A stretch of DNA of 11,596 nucleotides from the IMG/VR virus record IMGVR_UViG_2740892036_000005, positions 1-11,596 of that record; one strand, 5' to 3'. The number at the start of each line of letters is the position of its first letter. Positions within the stretch are counted from its first letter, which is position 1. This DNA is from a virus (Duplodnaviria; Heunggongvirae; Uroviricota; Caudoviricetes). The notes below the pieces were generated by a model, which did no database searches, was not told the origin of the DNA, and was given only the letters and a program-made list of their open reading frames with translations. Below are positions 1 through 8,708 of the stretch, in pieces. The translations under genes and the position numbers were made by a program.

Positions 1-340
1 GATTAGCTTCTTCCAATAATTAAAATTTTACCAAGCGTTTATGCCTTACAATATGTATTGTATCTCACCGTAAAACATATTTATATGGTTTTAAACCTAT
101 CTGTAAATCTTGACACCTTGGCAAGAACCTAATCCTACATTTTAATATCAATCTATATAATATAGCCAGTGTCATAATAATCGGGCTTGTCATAGTTAAG
201 TATTCTCCTCCGATATCCCAATGAGATAAGCAAGTCATCAGTGTTATAAATGAAAAGATCACATTTTTCAAAGAGTTATTATGATGAAATATTATTCAAA
301 ACGCAATGTAGCTGAAACGAGTCTGAGTTTAACATCCGCT
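1..340. other. AT-rich non-coding flank (module boundary)
   Basis: Base composition drops abruptly to strongly AT-rich compared with the GC-rich tail genes to the right. All three plus frames and all three minus frames have stop codons within the first ~65 nt, so no gene can enter from the left edge with meaningful coding length. The only ORFs are short, hydrophobic/AT-biased and lack a Shine-Dalgarno sequence. A TATAAT hexamer is at 156..161 and TTGACA at 110..115, but the spacing is not canonical. Confidence 0.5.
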
Positions 341-537
341 CCTAGTACATAGCAGTCCTAGGGACAGTGGCATAAAGTCTTAGATGGTCGGTGGGAGGTG
401 GTGGAAATCCCCTCATGCAAAAAACACATAAAATCGATAACAGCTGGAAATCATTCAATACTCGCACTATTGAAAGTTCACCAGCCAGCCGCAGCACGTT
501 CCTGCATACGACGTGTCTGCGGCATATCACAAAACGA

Positions 538-720: not shown

Positions 721-3700
721 TCAATGTTCGCTTCCTGTTAACTGCCGGACAAGTGCAACCAGTTCGCTTACCTGATTTTCCAGAGTGCTGATCCGGGTGT
801 CTGCTGTTGCCAGATTTTCACGTAGCGTTGTGTTTTCCTCTTCCAGCGCGGTAACGCGATCATCTGTTTCACGGGCGACCTGAACAAGTAAACCCGTCAC
901 GGCGGCGTAGTCAACATTAAGATAGCGCGTTTCTTCGCGTAGCTCGTTGCCGTCAACGGTCGGGCCTTGCAACTCTTCACCGTAATGGATGAATGAACCA
1001 ACGGCCTCCGGGATGGCCTCTTCAACTTCCTGGGCTATAACCCCGGCGCAATGTGCCCCATTCTCCTTGAGCGTGTACGTGTATCCATTAATTTTGCGGA
1101 TTGCGTCAGTCGCGTTATCGATAATCTCGATATTTTCTTTCAGTCTGCGGTCTGATGACTGATTCAGTGTGGTGCAGTTAACACTTCCGTTTACAGTAAG
1201 GTTTTGCCCGTCTGTTGTTTTTTGCGCATAAAACAGATACGCAGCAGACGTGCCAACCTCAAAAACGTTTTGTCGAGTACTGGAACCCCACACCCTGACA
1301 GAAAACGGTAGTTCTGCATTACCTGAGTTCTGTAAAACAAAACGATTACCAGTCCCTGATTGCTTTGTAAGGGTTAAATCAACGGTTGAGTTAACCTCAT
1401 TCCTGTTGATAGTGAGCGCCTGCGCTGTAGCCCCGTTAACAGCACCTGTTTTGAGTTGAACCGCGCCGTCATTACCATTTAACAGTATCTCAGCTCCGCT
1501 AAAGAAATTTTTTAGCGACAGCATCTTACTTACGCCGACTGATGAACCCAACGCCCACGCGAGAGAATTACCGGTGCTATCAAACCCACGTACAAAGCAA
1601 TCCATTTTGCTATAGTCTGACGTGCTTCCAAGGACATCAATCCGCCCTCCGCCAGATTTTACCGGACTAGATGTGGTTAACGACCTGACAGTTATATCCT
1701 GATTCCATCCGGAAACAACAACCTGACTCCACGCTGTCCAGTTTCCATTAACAACAAAGCGAACGTATATACGTTTTGTGTCGCTGTTAATCAGCGTTTG
1801 CATGTTCGCATAATCTGAATCCCTAACCTTACGAGTCGATTCAACACGGAGCAAAAAGTTACCTGTTACGCCGTCAGGCTTGTTGGTGATATTTGCACCA
1901 CCTGCAGAGGATGGACAAATATAGTATTTAACTGCCCCGGCATCTGACTTGATGATGGTCAGGTTGTTAAGATTAACCGTCTGGCCGTCAATGTTTTCCG
2001 GCTCGATGGCTCCTGCTATCCCGGCACTGAACGTAGCAACGGCTGAAAACGCTGTCGTACCTTTGAAAGCCAGTTGACCACCAATCGTTAATCCCTTGTC
2101 GAGTTTCGCTTGCGTGATCAATTTGCTGTTTTGTTTCTGATCAGGACTCTCACCAAAAGCCAGATCCCCATTAGTATCAATTCCAAGATACTTTGGGTTC
2201 ACGTTGTCTAACTTAAACCCAATGGACACATTTTCAGAAGAACCAGAACGCGTTAAAACTAACGGCGTGTGCTGTACTCCATAGATGCTTAGCGTAGTTG
2301 CCGATGAGCCAGTGTCGGTATTTGCAATCTCAATCGTTCTGCTTTTAATTTTATACGCTACTGTGAGATCACGGACTTCAACCCTCCCGTCGTGACGAAC
2401 AACAAGATCCCCTCCTGATGTCCCCCCTGCTGTCTTTGCCCTGATGCGAACTTCGCCAAGCGAATCAGTGTTAGGACCAGCATAGATTATGCCGCGCTCT
2501 GTGTTATCGCCAGTATAAAACCGCAAAGCGGTGACTCCACTGTCTGCCCGCAGGAAGACTGACGGTGTACCTTTTTTGATTGTCAAGTCACCGGTCATTG
2601 TATCGCCGGTTTTTTTTACCTGCGCATCGTTCGTTACGTTGCCAAGTCCAACATCCGATTTCGACGGCTTGTTTGCCGAGCCGTATAGCTCATTGATGCT
2701 AAAAGTCCCGTTGTTAAGCCGGGCATCGTTGCCGGCATAGATCTTAATCTTCGCGGTTGAGTAGTCGATATTGATCGCTGACCACGTATCGCCGCACCGC
2801 GAGAATATACCAGAACCGTGGCTATAAATGGTCGCCGTGCTTCCGGTCGGCTTATCACCGCGCCAGAAATGACCACCTTTGTCACGCAGAGCTTTTAAGA
2901 TCTCTACATCGCTCATCTTGCCGTTTGTTGATATCCCGCTACCGCCAAGACCGAAAGCGCCTGTAAGCATAGCATTAGAAAGACCCAAATCTGCTTTAGT
3001 CGGCTTGTTTAACTGGTCGTAAATCCTTACAACGGGGCTTTCAACATATCCAGAAGGCGCGGCGGTTTGCTTAACAAATCCGTCTGGAATGTATAATTCC
3101 GTGCGTGCCGTCTGCGCCAGTACCGCAACCTTTGCGCCGTTGATAAATGCACGCTGGAAGGCCCAAACCTCAATAAAGCCATCATCTTTAACCAGGCCGT
3201 AACGCATTTGCATGCTATTGATTAGCCCGGTTGGCCCTAAACGGCGTATACTCAGGTAACGAGATACATTATCAGCAGTAAGCGAAGAAGGCAGACCGCG
3301 CGCCGAGATCTCGATAAAGTCAATGTTTCCGTAAGGGGAGCCGTAGTCACCGCCGTTAGTAACCATTAGCGTTACATGGCAATTGTTGCTTCCGGGATCG
3401 GAAAGTTTCGCGATCTTTATGTAAAAAGACTCATTACCAGTAACAACGGGCCAATCGTATTGCGTCATCGGGCTGACGAGTCCCCCGACCTTGTCGAGAT
3501 ATTCTTTCGCCTTGTTCTCTGACGCTTTAGCGTTGGTTTCGCTGACCTTTGCTGCTGACTCACTATTTTTCGCGTTGGTTTCTGATTTTTTGGCTGCTGT
3601 CGCGGAATTTGCCGATGCAGTTTGTGAGTCTGCTGCCGCCTGTGCGCTGTTATCCGCATTCATCTCAGACGTTTTTGCGGCCTTCGCGGAATTTCCTGCC

Positions 3701-4497
3701 GCCGTTGCCGAGGAAGCTGCACTGCCGGCGCTCGAGGCTGCGCTCGTTTCTGATGATTTTGCCGCCACTTTTGAAGCCGACGCATCCCGGGCTGAGGTGG
3801 CAGCTTCTGACGCTTTCGTGGTCGCGGTGGATGCAGAAGTGGCCGCAGATTTTTGTGATGCTGCGGCATTCGTTTCTGACGTTTTCGCTGCACCGGCACT
3901 GGTGGCTGCCGCGCTTTTTGAAGACTCTGCAGCGGCAGCACTTTTTGATGCTTCAGTAGCCTTTGCTGATGCCGTTCCTGCGCTGGAAGACGCTGACTGA
4001 GCCGACGACGCGGCCTGTCCGGCTGACGTGCTGGCTGCGCGTGCTGAGTCTGCAGCATCAGTCGCATGGGTTGCCGCCTCACGGGCAGATGTGCCGGCAT
4101 CGCTGGCTGACTTCTTTGCGGCTGCCGTGTTCTGTGCCACTGCGGACGCGTTACGCGCCACCTCTTCCACCATCAGCTCAAAACGGCGCAGTGCCTCCGG
4201 ACGGGCATCATCCTCCGTCATGGCACCGAGAAAATCATTCAGCGTACCGGGTTGAGAATCTTCATACACGGTGATGGTCCCGGCATGTGACGGCGGGAAT
4301 CCTTCCACCAACAGAATAACGCTGTACTGACCGTACTCAACGTCCATGCTGTAACGCCCGGCTTCATCCGGATTTTCTGAGGCCAGCGTGTTCACCACCA
4401 CCGTGGTGCTGTTACGTTTTGCTTTCAGCTGGATTGTGCAGTTCTGTACCGGTTTTCCTGTGCCGTCTTTCAGTACACCTGAAATCTTTACTGCCAT
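721..4497 (-). CDS. stf: Side tail fibre protein (lambda Stf-like N-terminus, Ala/Ser-rich repeat shaft, distal fibre region, C-terminal S74 intramolecular chaperone)
   Basis: ORF 721..4503 (1260 aa). The likely true start is the ATG at 4495..4497, giving MAVKISGVLKDGTGKPVQNCTIQLKAK..., the N-terminus I recognise from lambda Stf and the StfR/StfQ family; the GTG at 4503 is an upstream in-frame alternative. Stop is TGA at 721..723. The protein contains tail-fibre motifs (KPSKSDVGLGNVTNDAQVKKTGDTMTGDLTI). It follows lom, as stf does in lambda. Confidence 0.88.
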   Translation of the reverse strand: MAVKISGVLKDGTGKPVQNCTIQLKAKRNSTTVVVNTLASENPDEAGRYSMDVEYGQYSVILLVEGFPPSHAGTITVYEDSQPGTLNDFLGAMTEDDARPEALRRFELMVEEVARNASAVAQNTAAAKKSASDAGTSAREAATHATDAADSARAASTSAGQAASSAQSASSSAGTASAKATEASKSAAAAESSKSAAATSAGAAKTSETNAAASQKSAATSASTATTKASEAATSARDASASKVAAKSSETSAASSAGSAASSATAAGNSAKAAKTSEMNADNSAQAAADSQTASANSATAAKKSETNAKNSESAAKVSETNAKASENKAKEYLDKVGGLVSPMTQYDWPVVTGNESFYIKIAKLSDPGSNNCHVTLMVTNGGDYGSPYGNIDFIEISARGLPSSLTADNVSRYLSIRRLGPTGLINSMQMRYGLVKDDGFIEVWAFQRAFINGAKVAVLAQTARTELYIPDGFVKQTAAPSGYVESPVVRIYDQLNKPTKADLGLSNAMLTGAFGLGGSGISTNGKMSDVEILKALRDKGGHFWRGDKPTGSTATIYSHGSGIFSRCGDTWSAINIDYSTAKIKIYAGNDARLNNGTFSINELYGSANKPSKSDVGLGNVTNDAQVKKTGDTMTGDLTIKKGTPSVFLRADSGVTALRFYTGDNTERGIIYAGPNTDSLGEVRIRAKTAGGTSGGDLVVRHDGRVEVRDLTVAYKIKSRTIEIANTDTGSSATTLSIYGVQHTPLVLTRSGSSENVSIGFKLDNVNPKYLGIDTNGDLAFGESPDQKQNSKLITQAKLDKGLTIGGQLAFKGTTAFSAVATFSAGIAGAIEPENIDGQTVNLNNLTIIKSDAGAVKYYICPSSAGGANITNKPDGVTGNFLLRVESTRKVRDSDYANMQTLINSDTKRIYVRFVVNGNWTAWSQVVVSGWNQDITVRSLTTSSPVKSGGGRIDVLGSTSDYSKMDCFVRGFDSTGNSLAWALGSSVGVSKMLSLKNFFSGAEILLNGNDGAVQLKTGAVNGATAQALTINRNEVNSTVDLTLTKQSGTGNRFVLQNSGNAELPFSVRVWGSSTRQNVFEVGTSAAYLFYAQKTTDGQNLTVNGSVNCTTLNQSSDRRLKENIEIIDNATDAIRKINGYTYTLKENGAHCAGVIAQEVEEAIPEAVGSFIHYGEELQGPTVDGNELREETRYLNVDYAAVTGLLVQVARETDDRVTALEEENTTLRENLATADTRISTLENQVSELVALVRQLTGSEH
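724..1152 (-). other. Peptidase S74-type C-terminal intramolecular chaperone domain of the tail fibre (predicted autocleavage at Ser|Asp, codons 1153..1155 | 1150..1152)
   Basis: The last 143 residues are ...NQSS|DRRLKENIEIIDNATDAIRKINGYTYTLKENGAHCAGVIAQEVEEAIPEAVGSF... followed by a heptad-like helical tail. The S-D-x-R-x-K-x-N-I and G-V-I-A-Q-E-V-E-E-x-I-P-E-x-V signatures are characteristic of the self-cleaving chaperone domain of endosialidases and of phage tail fibres/spikes such as T5 pb1 (Pfam Peptidase_S74 family). This is a motif-level call made from memory. Confidence 0.7.
3500..4160 (-). repeat. Degenerate ~42-nt (14-codon) tandem repeat array encoding the Ala/Ser/Thr/Lys-rich fibre shaft
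   Basis: Protein residues ~115-335 of Stf read as 14-aa periodic units (AKTSETNAAASQKS / AATSASTATTKASE / AATSARDASASKVA / AKSSETSAASSAGS ...). The plus-strand DNA shows recurring gtttctga(c/t)g(c/t)ttt(c/t)gc-type units. It also generates a spurious Ala/Phe-rich antisense ORF (3491..4000 plus). Confidence 0.65.
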
Positions 4498-4508
4498 ATT
4501 CACCCCAC

Positions 4509-4561: not shown

Positions 4562-5161
4562 TCAGAACTTATAACCGACACCCATGATGAAACCGTCAGT
4601 GCGCCAGTCGCCACTGCCGGAGCCTTCATAAGCAATATCAATGGCCACGGATTCGGTCGGGTTAAACTGCACGCCAGCTCCCCACGCCAGAGACGTGTTG
4701 CTGTGGCGACCGTCATCACTTCCGGTCAGCACATCGTGCGTTTTCCCCTTGTTGTCAGTTACGCGGAGATAATCCCCGGAGAAAGTCGACACACGGCTGT
4801 AAGCCACACCCGCCATCGCATACGCGCTGAACCATTCATTCACGCGCACAGACGGCCCCGCCATCACGCTGAACCAGCGGTTACGCACGGAATCCTCATG
4901 CCAGCGGGTATCGCTGTAATGCGTTTTTTGCTCATCTTCAGCGTTGGCATAACTGAATGACGTAATCAGCCCCAGCGTGTCCGTAAACTCATAACGGTAT
5001 TTCACGTTAATCCCGTTCAGATCATCACTACCGGGAACGTTCGTCGAGGCATGAAGATACCCTGCGCTCAGTGTGGCCTGCTGCTCAGACGCCCATGCAG
5101 GCGCACCGGATACGGCCAGACAGATGGCTGCGGACAAAATGGCTGCACAAACTTTACGCAT
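4562..5161 (-). CDS. lom: Lom-like outer membrane protein (Ail/Lom/PagC/Rck family beta-barrel)
   Basis: 199 aa, ATG at 5159..5161 with a GAGAGG Shine-Dalgarno sequence upstream. It has an N-terminal signal peptide (MRKVCAAILSAAICLAVSGAPAWA|SEQ) and the family C-terminus ...DIAYEGSGSGDWRTDGFIMGVGYKF that I recognise from lambda Lom. Its position between J and stf is the same as in lambda. Confidence 0.9.
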   Translation of the reverse strand: MRKVCAAILSAAICLAVSGAPAWASEQQATLSAGYLHASTNVPGSDDLNGINVKYRYEFTDTLGLITSFSYANAEDEQKTHYSDTRWHEDSVRNRWFSVMAGPSVRVNEWFSAYAMAGVAYSRVSTFSGDYLRVTDNKGKTHDVLTGSDDGRHSNTSLAWGAGVQFNPTESVAIDIAYEGSGSGDWRTDGFIMGVGYKF

Positions 5162-5185: not shown

Positions 5186-5210
5186 AAAAAAGGCGCCAGA
5201 AATGGCGCCC
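5186..5210 (-). terminator. Intrinsic terminator-like hairpin between J and lom
   Basis: On the minus strand: GGCGCCA-UUUC-UGGCGCC followed by UUUUUU (stem plus 5192..5198 / 5203..5209; U-tract from plus A-run 5186..5191). It starts 19 nt downstream of the J stop and ends 24 nt upstream of the lom ATG. Confidence 0.55.
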
Positions 5211-5228: not shown

Positions 5229-8200
5229 TCAGCTGATACTGATACCTGCTGTGGATTTCTTCATCACCACAACCAGCAAATCACTGATACTGGCTGTGGG
5301 ATACCAGTCATTTACCAGCCACGCTGATACCGAAAACTCCAGCGTCATGTGACCGCGACCAGCAGGCATATCAATAACACCTGTATAAACCAGCGTATTA
5401 TCCAGCGCGGTACGGTTATAAATTTCAGCACCGTTTTTCTTCACCATCAGGCGGCATGACGAATAAATATCGTTATTCTCCCGCTCATGTTTAGCGCCAC
5501 GAAACGCCACCGCGGGAATAACAATCTGCCGGTCAAACGGCTGATCGTCATAAACCCTGACGGTAATGGTCCCTGATGGCCACCGCTCCGGTGCACGGGA
5601 GTCCCGGGGGAAAGCTTTGCCCACTGTTTTAACGAGATCGCCTTCAATCTGGTTCGCAGACAGTTTTCCCAGAACCCGACAGTTCTCGTTAATCGTGACG
5701 TTGTTGAGCGTCCCGGAGTTCGCATTCACGTTACCGCTGATATCGGCATTTTTCGCCGTCAGCCGCCCGTCCGGTGTCAGGGAAAATACCGGAGGATTAC
5801 CGCCGCTGGTAATGGTGGGAGCCGTCAGGCGTTTCAGGAACACTTCGTTCATGAATATCTGATCGCCCTGACCAACAAACATCGGCTTTGTGTTGCCATT
5901 CGCAGGATTAATCATCGCAATCCTGTCTGCCGCCAGCAGCACCTGACTCTGCATGCCGTCAGGGGTGTTCTCAATACCGGCACCAATACCCGCGATATAA
6001 AGGCGTCCGTCCTGCATCTGCTGCAGCTTCACAGCCCACATGCTGTTCAGGTTATTATTTGTATCAACCTGAACCTTCTGTATCTGCTGAATTGCCGCAC
6101 TCTGGTCTTCCAGTTTCTTATTGACGGTCTGTGTGATTTCATTGCTGACATCCGTAATGGATGTCCTGATTTCAGCCAGGTCAGGCGCAAGCTGACCGTT
6201 ATCAATCTGCGTCCACAGCTCCTGAGCCAGATGGGTTTTCCCTATCTCGCCTTTGAAAAAATCCAGATAGCCGGATGCGTCATCACTCGGCTGACCAACA
6301 GCCTCCACGAATGCCGATTTGCCAACGGTGTTCACACTGCGAACGTAAAAATAATAATTATGGCCCGGCCTGATATTGATACTGGCGGCTATCCAGTACA
6401 GCGCCGTGCCAAGATAGCGTGCTGTGGTTTCAACCTGCCTGATATCCGCAATCCGCTTTTCCGAGAACCAGAACTCAAACTGTACCGTCGGATCATAAAC
6501 CGCAAGATGCGGCGTGGCGGTTATCTGAAAATAGCCCGGCGTCAGCTCAATCCGCGACGGCGCTGCCGGTGCGGCAATCCGGAACGATACCGACGCCGGA
6601 TCGCCCTGCTGTCCCCACGCATTTACCGCCCGGACTGTCAGCCTGTAGTTTCCCAGCGCCAGCTGCGTGAAGCGGTATGTGGTTTCCGTCGTCCTGGCTG
6701 TGCTGACCAGCCGCTCACTGCCGTCATCCGCTGTCACGGTCAGACGGAGCAGGAAGCTCACGCCCTTCACCACCTTCGGTGTGTCCCAGCGCGCCAGAAC
6801 CTGATATTCCCCGCTGTCTGCGGTGACTTCGGCGGTCAGGTGCTGCACCGCTGGCGGCGTGACACCATTCACCGTGCCGCTCTGGTCGCCGTCAAAGTGC
6901 GCCCCGTTATCCACGATGGCCTCTTTTTCCGGTACATGCTGCACGGCGGTGATGGCATACGTACCGTCATCGTTCTCACGGATACTCACACAGCGGAACA
7001 GGCGCTGGCGCAGCGTCGGCAGCTTCAGCCCCCACACGCTGTATTCGGCAACGCCGTCAGGAACACGGCTCACTTTCACCTTCACGCCGTCGGTGACGGA
7101 CTGGACCTCCACGCTGACCGGATTGCCATTTCCGTCAACCAGGCTTATCAGCGTGGTTCCGGAGGATGGCAGCATGATTTCACGGTCGAGCGTCAGTGTC
7201 CGGGTCTGGCTGTTTACCGCAAGCACGCGCCCGCCGACGCTGATACCCGCATAGTCATCATCGCAGATTTCAATGACATCGCCCGGTACATGGCGAAGCC
7301 CTTCTGCGCCCACGCTGAAGTCCACAGTCTGCGTTTCCAGCAGCTCCGTTTTAATCAGCCACAGCCCGGCGCGGTGTGCCTGCCCCCGGCTGGTACAGCC
7401 AAAGGCATCCATCTTCGTGACGTTACGACCGTAACGGGCAATGGCCTGCGTGTCCTCCACAAGCTCTGTTGCCGTCTCCCAGCCGTTGTCCGGGTCAATC
7501 CAGTTCACCTCAACGGCATTATGGCGGTCCTTCAGGGCGCTGAAGCTGTAGCGGAACGGCGCGTCATCATCCGGCATCACCACATTACTGCGGTTATAGG
7601 TCCACACCTTATCCGACGGTCGGTCCTGCACGAACGTCAGCGTCTGCCCGTTCCATACCGGCATACAGCGCATCGCCGAGCAGAAATCACTGAGCACATC
7701 CCACGCCTTTCGCTGTGTGGTCAGGTAGGCATTACAGGTGATGCGCGGCTCCGTGCCGCCAAAACCGTCCGGCACCGACTGGTCGCAATACTGGCCGATG
7801 ACATACAGCGCCCATTTGTCCACATCCGCCGCACCAAGACGTTTCCCCATGCCGTAGCGCGGGTGGGTCAGCATATCCCACAGACACCAGGCCGGGTTGT
7901 TGCTGTATGCCGGCTTAAACGTTCCGTCCCAGATACCGCTGTATTGCCGCGTCTGCGGGTTATAGTTCGACGGCACCTGCAGAATGCGCCCGCGAAGATG
8001 ATAATTACGGCTCACCTGCTGGCTGCCGAACTGCTCCGAGTCCACCTGCACGCCGACCAGTGCCGTGTTCGGGTAGCACTGTTTCACATCGATGATTTCG
8101 GTGTATGACGACCAGAGCGTTTTGTTCTGCAGCTGGTCTGTGGTGCTGTCCGGCGTCATCCTGCGCATCCGGATATTAAACGGGCGCGGCGGCAGGCTAC

Positions 8201-8708
8201 CCACCACCACCGAGGCCAGATACTGCGAGGTGGTTTTGCCCTTAATGGTGATGTCTTTTTCCGTCACCCAGCCACCATTACGCTGTATCTGAACCAGCAG
8301 GCGGACTTCCGACGGATTCCGGTCCCCCTTTGAGGTGGTTTCCACCAGTGCCTGTACACCGAAGGTAAAGCGCAGACGGTCGATGTTTGCCGACGTAATG
8401 GTGCGGGTGATCGGCGTGTCATATTTCACTTCCGTACCCAGCACCGTCTCGGAGCCGGAGGATTCAAATCCCTCCGGCGGTGACTGCTCCTGCTCACCTG
8501 CCCGGAACACCACCGTGACGCCGGATATATTGGTATTCCCCTCACTGTCCAGCACCGGCGTACTGTTCAGCAGCACGCTTTTTAATCCATCCACCGGACC
8601 TTCAATCGGCCCTTCGCTGATGGCATCAATCACACTCAGCAGCTGCGTGGATTTCAGGTTGTCCTTCGCTTCGCGCGGGGTATGCCCCTTACTGCTGCCT
8701 TTACCCAT
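5229..8708 (-). CDS. J: Tail tip / central tail fibre host-specificity protein J, with a divergent C-terminal receptor-binding region
   Basis: 1159 aa, ATG at 8706..8708 with GGAG upstream, stop TGA at 5229..5231. The N-terminus [54 protein letters not shown]... and roughly the first 800 residues read as lambda J. The last ~350 residues (about 5232..6290) are recognisably homologous but substantially diverged, and the protein is ~27 aa longer than lambda J (1132 aa). Confidence 0.95.

Follow-up and report, generated by a model that had tools for sequence, protein, structure and literature searches.

The J gene carried by the window, the whole 11,596-nt stretch of DNA that was analysed (IMG/VR record IMGVR_UViG_2740892036_000005), is likely a lambda-like gene of an E. 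coli EcPF20 prophage in which at least three recombined modules are joined and whose receptor-binding domain (RBD) most likely docks on OmpC. As a tail-tip gene of an E. coli prophage it is unremarkable, and its C-terminal modules are already known. Separate recombination of the J specificity region and OmpC-binding variants of J have both been published before, and the gene itself is present in RefSeq as gpJ.

The J Locus

The product of J is identical to WP_061091480.1, annotated as "phage attachment tail tip protein J" of E. coli EcPF20. The entire window is 100% identical to the EcPF20 prophage locus NZ_CP071441.1, in which the gene is already annotated as gpJ. The gene and its neighbors are as follows.

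5229..8708, minus strand: J, encoding the tip attachment or central tail fibre protein; an intact ORF of 1159 aa plus stop, from the ORF list and its translation
5191..5210, minus strand: terminator-like hairpin directly 3' of the J stop codon, from a consensus scan
4562..5161, minus strand: lom, encoding an Ail/Lom outer-membrane protein (Pfam Ail_Lom, E 1e-126), directly downstream of J, as in lambda
721..4503, minus strand: stf, encoding the side tail fibre; a continuous ORF of 1260 aa (Pfam phage_tail_N, 3-136; Peptidase_S74, 1117-1168)

All of these genes lie on a single strand. According to the RefSeq annotation of the EcPF20 locus, J is preceded by the tape measure gene, M, L, K, and I and followed by lom and stf, the last two being supported by Pfam matches as well; this is the genomic context of a gpJ. 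Lambda J sits between the same neighbors, with L, K, and I ahead of it and lom and stf behind, and has the same Pfam architecture. Terminators are annotated at the equivalent post-J position in phages 21, 434, and Ayreon, and the stf product ends in an S74 intramolecular chaperone domain. Six Pfam families (Phage-tail_3, FNIII-A_GpJ, Ig_J, Ig_J_second, Phage_Tail_Tip, and Ig_GpJ_C) match J in the lambda order, all above their gathering thresholds, giving it the architecture of a lambda-type gpJ. The 98% identity of its hub and FNIII domains to the solved lambda gpJ suggests that J would form, as a trimer, the tail-tip cone and central fibre of the virion.

Segments of J and Their Relatives

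Lambda gpJ (P03749/NP_040600; PDB 8IYK, 8XCK, 8XCJ, and 8XCG) is the LamB-binding central tail fibre. Compared with lambda J (NC_001416; 1132 aa), the 1159-aa window protein is 83% identical overall, and this average conceals four segments of 98% (aa 1-805), 38% (aa 806-934), 87% (aa 935-1003), and 46% (aa 1004-1159) identity. The segments and the boundaries between them are listed below.

6294..8708, minus strand: lambda-like body, aa 1-805, with hub domains and two FNIII/Ig domains, delimited by amino acid identity
6243..6341, minus strand: junction 1 (relative to lambda and 434), at the end of the second Ig/FNIII domain and the start of the helical shaft
5907..6293, minus strand: alternative alpha-helical-shaft/upper-fibre allele, aa 806-934, ~28 aa longer than lambda's
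5700..5906, minus strand: conserved lower central-fibre joint, aa 935-1003, containing TAKNADISG, delimited by amino acid identity
5607..5717, minus strand: junction 2 zone, the exchange site of the RBD module (~5700-5717 versus Ayreon; ~5607-5641 versus phage 21)
5229..5699, minus strand: Ig-like receptor-binding module of the 1A2/640R1 type, aa 1004-1159 plus stop (Pfam Ig_GpJ_C, aa 1029-1159; 5232-5624)

The body is 98% identical to those of lambda, 434, Ayreon, and 640R1 and 97% identical to that of phage 21; at the nucleotide level, its identity to lambda is 88-99% in windows of 90-100 nt. A preliminary description of this DNA had read residues 1 to ~800 as lambda J, and the body bears this out. 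That description had also treated the last third of the protein as a single diverged and longer block. The divergence and extra length are real, with 93 residues between GYLDFF and AGIG in place of the 65 in lambda, but the region consists of three parts, and similarity to lambda returns in the joint (84-89% nt identity at aa ~946-990).

The shaft allele is 38% identical to lambda's, 62% to that of phi330, 98% to that of phage 21, and 100% to those of Ayreon and 640R1. The name of this domain is taken by homology from lambda gpJ (PMC11101478). A single-sequence AlphaFold2 model of aa 800-1159 is too poor for structural statements (mean pLDDT, 38.9; pTM, 0.27), and the helix that it predicts for aa ~812-900, at a pLDDT of only 50-74 (a range reached chiefly at aa ~841-900), is suggestive at most. 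The joint is 87% identical to those of lambda and 434 and 96-99% identical to those of phage 21, Ayreon, and 640R1. From these comparisons, aa 935-1003 appear to be homology common to the fibre and RBD modules and to act as a recombination joint.

In the RBD, identity falls from 94% to 640R1 to 68% to phage 21, 65% to phi330, 46% to lambda, and 42% to 434. The best PDB match is "A8 gpJ 713" (9wca; E 9e-127), followed by lambda gpJ (8xcj/8xck). The peptides quoted in the preliminary description are present at aa 827-880 (LAQELWTQ...QKVQ; 6069-6230) and aa 1124-1159 (EFSVSAW...GISIS; 5232-5339), and its statement that the C-terminus differs from that of lambda holds. In the comparison with lambda residues ~1000-1132, indels in the variable loops accompany the 46% identity and set the window RBD apart from the lambda-type, LamB-binding form.

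The relative that shares all three modules is J of vB_EcoS-640R1 (ON470612; URC10086.1), also of 1159 aa, which is 96.4% identical in nucleotide sequence over the full gene; 9 of its 27 amino acid differences from the window protein fall within the last 90 residues. J proteins of PhiR55_1, PhiR46_1, and several Stx2a-converting or PPompW prophages group with it. Phage 21 J (OL657228; UMO75436.1) is 97-98% identical to the window protein through aa ~1020, the long shaft included, and has an RBD nearer the A8/phi330 type than the window's. Ayreon J matches at 100% over aa 806-934 and 99% over aa 935-1003, and 434 J matches at 98% over the body. The RBDs of 434 and Ayreon, which are OmpC-binding and of the 434 type, are only 42-44% identical to the window RBD and belong to a different type (…NITDCTVIVTKKAASGISIR).

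The Receptor-Binding Domain and Its Probable Receptor

The evidence on the receptor comes chiefly from gpJ 1A2 (Brodel et al. 2024, Nature, PMC11338833), an OmpC-dependent chimeric lambda gpJ whose upstream part is the lambda short shaft. Over aa 1004-1159, 136 of 150 readable codons are identical between 1A2 and the window, as are 191 of 211 over aa 942-1159, with no indels; this gives ~91% identity across the graft, which runs from lambda aa 964 to the C-terminus, with an error of a few percent, because both 1A2 and A8 were read from OCR-damaged supplement text by frameshift-tolerant alignment. Plain tblastn and blastn searches of that OCR text returned only broken, low-identity HSPs, owing to OCR indels. 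By the same alignment, the 640R1 RBD is identical to that of 1A2 at 144 of 150 readable codons. When fused at lambda aa 964, the 1A2 module allowed DNA delivery to lamB-deleted cells carrying EDL933-type OmpC and none to cells with K-12 OmpC (PMC11338833). Because the window RBD so closely resembles a module that uses OmpC in a lamB-deleted host, we regard OmpC, with moderate confidence, as the most likely receptor. The next RBD relatives, A8 gpJ (PDB 9wca/9wcb) and the phi330 tail fibre (PV189401), belong to the same clade and are OmpC-dependent on K-12, as established by Keio knockout and complementation (PMC12502783). Their extreme C-termini are identical to that of the window protein, although the RBD as a whole is 65% identical. 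These data agree with the proposal of the preliminary description that the receptor is probably not that of lambda, an agreement based on homology.

Three variable loops of the RBD correspond to segments of other phages for which contacts with OmpC have been predicted.

5580..5603, minus strand: variable loop DSRAPERW, aa 1036-1043, with 4 more residues than its counterparts in phage 21, phi330, and A8 (alignment)
5469..5486, minus strand: variable hairpin ERENND, aa 1075-1080, with 5 fewer residues than its counterparts in phage 21, phi330, and A8 (alignment)
5298..5315, minus strand: variable hairpin VNDWYP, aa 1132-1137, with D1134 replaced by N in 640R1 and 1A2 (alignment)

The assignment of these loops relies on the AlphaFold3 description of another phage, phi330 (PMC12502783). 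The first matches phi330 T918-Y921, and the equivalent 434 loop is predicted to touch OmpC; the second matches E953-S962, a segment that, according to an AlphaFold3 prediction, points inside the barrel of OmpC; and the third matches A1015-P1020, a predicted contact with the OmpC rim (PMC12502783). Relative to A8 and phi330, the window thus has a shorter 1075-1080 hairpin and a longer 1036-1043 loop. Relative to 1A2, loop lengths are equal and the C-terminal motif is of the same type. The ~12-14 substitutions between the two include R1070S, R1076K, N1078H, N1079T, R1118H, and D1134N, of which R1076K, N1078H, N1079T, and D1134N lie in the predicted contact loops. Within the hairpins whose contacts are assigned from the phi330 AlphaFold3 model, ERENND differs from EKEHTD at three of six positions and VNDWYP from VNNWYP at one of six.

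By homology, the trimeric RBD would most likely dock on the trimeric porin OmpC rather than on LamB, through its variable distal loops (aa 1036-1043, 1075-1080, and 1132-1137). This contact would set off the cascade described for lambda gpJ (PMC11101478), in which the RBDs spread apart and the fibre twists, after which the helical shaft unfolds and the tube opens. Like the receptor itself, the OmpC alleles recognized and this triggering mechanism are proposed by analogy. FhuA- and BamA-dependent tail tips were considered and set aside, since the RBD matches are strong and specific within the lambda/1A2/A8 Ig_GpJ_C family; that BamA users are short-tailed phages also counted against the BamA comparison. 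A search of the literature found no receptor data for 640R1, the PhiR phages, Chlobot, 2G7b, or JLK-2012, and none of these is mentioned in the Genome Research paper on lambdoid phages.

Within this RBD clade, sequence identity appears to be a loose guide to the receptor, because the RBDs of phage 21, a LamB user, and A8, which uses OmpC, match at 120 of 149 readable codons (~80%, subject to the uncertainty of the OCR-derived A8 sequence). Phage 21 is the natural model for a window RBD that still uses LamB, possibly a LamB variant, and differs from lambda as an alternative solution to the same receptor. Its native receptor is LamB, its RBD lies in the same clade and is as far from lambda's as the window's is, and one substitution, I1025T, is enough to switch it to OmpC; the window has L1025 where phage 21 has I1025. 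We nevertheless consider this reading unlikely, as the window RBD is far closer to 1A2 than to phage 21, and two of its three variable loops carry indels relative to the latter.

Slightly less probable still is that the RBD binds a different outer-membrane protein, be it OmpF, some further porin, or a protein of another kind, or that it accepts only a few OmpC alleles, distinct from those that 1A2 recognizes. Substitutions relative to 1A2 and 640R1 do lie in the predicted contact hairpins or close to them, OmpF comes within reach of evolved phage 21 and lambda after a few mutations, and the exact RBD (at least 99% nt identity) occurs in only 10 genome records. However, nothing in the data points positively to any receptor other than OmpC, and ERENND is identical in 640R1, whose RBD otherwise equals that of 1A2 at nearly every codon. 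Another reading, that the sub-allele defined by L1025, R1070, ERENND (1075-1080), R1118, and D1134 has a specificity that may differ from that of 1A2 (other OmpC alleles, LamB, or OmpF), is tentative, with perhaps a modest chance of being right. If this holds, the J RBD family that is commonest among E. coli prophages would offer a natural example of receptor retargeting on a fine scale.

Junctions and Mosaic Origin

OmpC remains the preferred receptor, and the boundaries of the module that would bind it can be located from the distribution of mismatches. Against lambda, the first 2367 nt of the gene show few mismatches and nt 2368-2408 none; from nt 2409 (window 6300) onward, mismatches are dense. 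The maximum-chi-square breakpoint lies at gene nt 2466 (window 6243), with a chi2 of 772, where 500 permutations gave at most 18.8. Mismatch rates are 0.048 on its left side and 0.426 on its right. GC content drops across the junction from 0.59 to 0.51. The collapse of identity at window ~6243-6341 far exceeds chance, and the preliminary description, which had placed a mosaic junction near nt ~6290, was right to within ~50 nt. There is more than one such junction, however. Against Ayreon, no mismatches occur in the 650 nt between gene nt 2341 and 2991, and they become dense from nt 3009 (window 5700-5717). The corresponding maximum-chi-square breakpoint is at nt 3015 (chi2 1085; null maximum, 16), with 48% mismatch beyond it. 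Against phage 21, the break falls at gene nt ~3068-3102 (window 5607-5641) and, like those against lambda and Ayreon, is sharp and of high significance. At least two junctions are therefore present, and the second, near window 5700, delimits the receptor-binding module.

The same modules occur in other combinations elsewhere. Lambda pairs a short shaft with the lambda RBD, and 434 pairs a short shaft with the 434 RBD; Ayreon joins the long shaft to a 434-type RBD, phage 21 joins it to the phi21 RBD, and the window and 640R1 J proteins join it to the 1A2-type RBD. Sequence comparison thus shows both the module boundaries and their reassortment among phages. The breakpoints and the reassorted shaft and RBD alleles of lambda, 434, Ayreon, phage 21, and the window match the behavior of the recombining specificity region of J (aa 960-1132), whose phylogeny is unlike that of the rest of the gene (Maddamsetti et al. 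2018, PMC6646904). Homologous recombination would have joined at least three interchangeable modules into J, and the lambda-type hub and FNIII region (aa 1-805) would keep J able to work with the lambda-like tail genes beside it.

The preliminary description had spoken of a heavily substituted C-terminus, and what is observed in place of gradual divergence is the replacement of whole modules by alleles widespread in E. coli. It is very improbable that the C-terminal difference arose in one lineage, without recombination, from point substitutions accumulated under diversifying selection: such selection on the J specificity region is documented (PMC6646904) and scattered substitutions do separate the window from 640R1 (9% nt mismatch in the RBD versus 3% elsewhere), but the step from perfect identity to 48% mismatch, the module-sized indels, and the recurrence of the same alleles at 98-100% identity in differently combined phages all speak against it, so that mismatch distribution, module identities, and breakpoint tests contradict it at the module level.

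The recombined modules differ in what they say about the receptor. The helical segment that the preliminary description had noted is indeed reshaped, but its supposed bearing on receptor choice does not follow. Because this shaft allele is 98-100% identical in phage 21, a LamB user, and in Ayreon, with its 434-type RBD, it is, as a common allele paired with several different RBDs, no guide to the receptor. Judging from these alignments, junction 2, and not junction 1 at the helical shaft, bounds the receptor-binding module and would set specificity.

Implications

Each of the two non-lambda modules of this J is present in about two thirds of the complete E. coli genomes: the shaft allele in 3545 of 5426 and the RBD type in ~3350, with EDL933 itself carrying 7 copies of the 1A2-type RBD. 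Lambda's own LamB-binding RBD, found in 98 of the 5426 and mostly in laboratory lysogens, is the rare form in nature, and the RBD family of the window is the common one. Receptor specificity would not be set at the helical shaft, conspicuous though its junction is. In phage engineering, the window RBD and other natural sub-alleles of the 1A2 type are candidate building blocks for directing lambda-based vectors to specific OmpC variants.

J gene and its surroundings

The attachment gene J encodes a central tail fibre in which Pfam recovers the complete lambda gpJ architecture; the feature under study lies in its 3' third.

Features of J (window coordinates; Pfam domains in J residues)
5229-8708, -: J, 3480-nt ORF, 1159 aa
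aa 86-207: FNIII-A_GpJ
aa 330-498: Phage-tail_3
aa 610-714: Ig_J
aa 716-818: Ig_J_second
aa 872-1000: Phage_Tail_Tip
aa 1029-1159: Ig_GpJ_C
5210-5191: terminator-like hairpin, 3' of the J stop codon

A terminator is likewise annotated after J in phages 21, 434, and Ayreon. The entire window matches, at 100% identity, a prophage in the chromosome of E. coli EcPF20 (urine isolate, NZ_CP071441.1); the annotation there names J as gpJ, "phage attachment tail tip protein J" (WP_061091480.1). Upstream of J in that locus are the tape measure and M-, L-, K-, and I-like genes, and lom, followed by the side-tail-fibre genes, lies downstream.

In the window, the side-tail-fibre gene (721-4503, -) is a single unbroken 1260-aa ORF whose N-terminus carries phage_tail_N and whose residues 1117-1168 form an S74 intramolecular chaperone domain. 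RefSeq calls only two pieces in the identical EcPF20 locus, a CDS at 721-1524 and a partial pseudogene at 4063-4497, leaving the middle ~2.5 kb of the ORF unannotated. The gene avs2 (AVAST type 2 anti-phage gene, WP_061091478.1) lies directly past the prophage tail-fibre end, left of the window (EcPF20, L007:1-3000), and may be a defence gene that the prophage carries at its end or that sits on its boundary. A "tail fiber assembly protein" pseudogene remnant (window ~538-672) separates avs2 from stf, and GC drops to 0.36 in window 1-500.

Modular structure of the C-terminal third

J is 83% identical overall to lambda J (NC_001416) and 27 aa longer. The preliminary description held that a lambda-like body gives way to a diverged C-terminus near nt 6290, and both peptides quoted there are found in J. 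Segment identities of 98% (aa 1-805), 38% (aa 806-934), 87% (aa 935-1003), and only 46% (aa 1004-1159) confirm this division; uniformly high identity to lambda J is not seen. Nucleotide mismatches are few until gene nt 2367 and absent from 2368 to 2408; from 2409 (window 6300) onward they are dense. In a maximum-chi-square scan the breakpoint falls at gene nt 2466 (window 6243; chi2 = 772, null maximum 18.8 in 500 permutations), and GC falls from 0.59 to 0.51 at this junction. An antisense ORF (6231-8108, +; 625 aa, ATG start) lies inside the lambda-like, ~60% GC part of J, its 5' end approximately at the GC drop and the mosaic junction; an artefact of codon bias is the most likely explanation for it.

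The junction near 6290 therefore stands, but a second, at window 5700-5717, had been overlooked. Comparison with J of lambda, 434, phage 21, Ayreon, vB_EcoS-640R1 (640R1), and phi330 indicates that the last third comprises three modules rather than one diverged region. Residues 806-934 correspond, by homology to the lambda gpJ structure from which the domain names are taken (PMC11101478), to the alpha-helical shaft and upper central straight fibre, and are an alternative allele. The stretch from GYLDFF to AGIG spans 93 residues versus 65 in lambda, and the module is 100% identical to those of Ayreon and 640R1, 98% to phage 21, and 62% to phi330. Single-sequence AF2 predicts aa ~812-900 to be helical, with overall confidence too low for use (pLDDT 38.9). 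Residues 935-1003 are kept across the whole panel. The receptor-binding domain (RBD) begins at aa ~1004: against Ayreon, mismatches are absent from gene nt 2341 to 2991 and dense from nt 3009 (chi2 1085, null maximum 16), whereas the junction against phage 21 falls slightly later (window ~5607-5641).

Shaft and RBD alleles of J
lambda: short shaft; lambda RBD
434: short shaft; 434 RBD
Ayreon: long shaft; 434-type RBD
phage 21: long shaft; phi21 RBD
window and 640R1: long shaft; 1A2-type RBD

Shaft and RBD alleles occur in differing combinations, a pattern that recombination, not gradual divergence, generates, and the proposal of a mosaic origin is upheld. This pattern agrees with the published history of the J specificity region (aa 960-1132), whose phylogeny is very different from that of the remainder of J (PMC6646904). 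The phi330 homologue (PV189401, L002:17195-20610) also has the long helical-shaft form. Its annotation, a 1042-aa "tail fiber protein" with an overlapping 116-aa hypothetical ORF ahead, suggests a frameshift or mis-called start.

Receptor assignment

The receptor-relevant part of J is the RBD, which is 94% identical to that of 640R1, 68% to phage 21 (LamB), 65% to phi330, 46% to lambda (LamB), and 42% to 434 (OmpC). The natural gpJ C-termini 1A2 and A8, grafted on lambda gpJ, both deliver DNA to lamB-deleted cells via OmpC; 1A2 uses EDL933-type but not K-12 OmpC, and A8 uses both (Brodel et al. 2024, PMC11338833). Their DNA was taken from supplement OCR text containing indels and compared by frameshift-tolerant protein-to-DNA alignment, with identities counted on readable codons only. 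The window matches 1A2 at 191/211 codons over aa 942-1159 and at 136/150 within the RBD, where it matches A8 at 95/156. The 640R1 RBD matches 1A2 at 144/150, and that of phi330 matches A8 at 143/151 and is essentially of the A8 type. Phage phi330 depends on OmpC, as established by Keio knockout and complementation (PMC12502783). The top solved-structure match of the J C-terminus is "A8 gpJ 713" (PDB 9wca/9wcb, E 9e-127; no publication was found in a literature search), ahead of the lambda gpJ structures 8xcj/8xck/8iyk. Seven copies of the window-type RBD occur in E. coli O157:H7 EDL933, whose OmpC type is the one 1A2 recognizes.

The 1A2-like RBD, the A8 structural match, and the EDL933 copies together make OmpC the most likely receptor, and the suggestion of a receptor change relative to lambda probably holds. 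The "reshaped helical segment" cited as a sign of that change was over-read: phage 21, whose native receptor is LamB (PMC11336670), has the same long segment, which is thus no evidence of such a change.

However, identity maps only loosely to receptor within this RBD clade. LamB-using phage 21 and OmpC-using A8 share 120 of 149 readable RBD codons (~80%), and a single change, I1025T, is enough for phage 21 to acquire OmpC use. LamB is an unlikely, though conceivable, receptor for this J. At aa 1025 (window 5634-5636, -) the window, 640R1, and 1A2 carry L; phage 21, phi330, A8, and lambda have I at the equivalent position, and 434 and Ayreon have F. The window RBD differs from 1A2, as read from OCR text, at ~12-14 positions, including ERENND versus EKEHTD at aa 1075-1080 and D1134N within VNDWYP (aa 1132-1137); the loop at aa 1036-1043 is unlike those of phage 21, phi330, and A8 in length. 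Several of these substitutions fall in stretches aligned to phi330 hairpins with predicted OmpC contact, so another receptor, or a shifted OmpC-allele range, retains a small probability.

Entry can be sketched by homology to lambda (PMC11101478). The distal loops of three RBDs at the fibre tip would enter a trimeric porin through its extracellular mouth, and the RBD bases would then splay apart. The beta-prism fibre would twist, the helical shaft would unfold and flip, the FNIII strings would be released, and the hub would open for DNA ejection. With the long shaft allele, the closed fibre should be a few nanometres longer.

Prevalence

Genomes carrying each module, among 5426 complete E. coli genomes (megablast coverage at least 80%)
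window-type RBD: 3350; mostly 90-95% nt identity, at least 99% in 10 records only
long shaft allele: 3545; mostly 95-99% nt identity
lambda RBD: 98 (96 at coverage of at least 80%); the matches listed are laboratory strains
lambda short shaft: 2561

In the phage collection, 640R1, PhiR55_1, PhiR46_1, and 500465-3 match full-length J at 95-96% nt identity. The feature is of a known kind in a known, already annotated gene; isolated phages carry close relatives, and a near-relative of its RBD has been characterized functionally. By the module counts in E. coli genomes, the J studied here has the usual arrangement in nature, and lambda is the exception.
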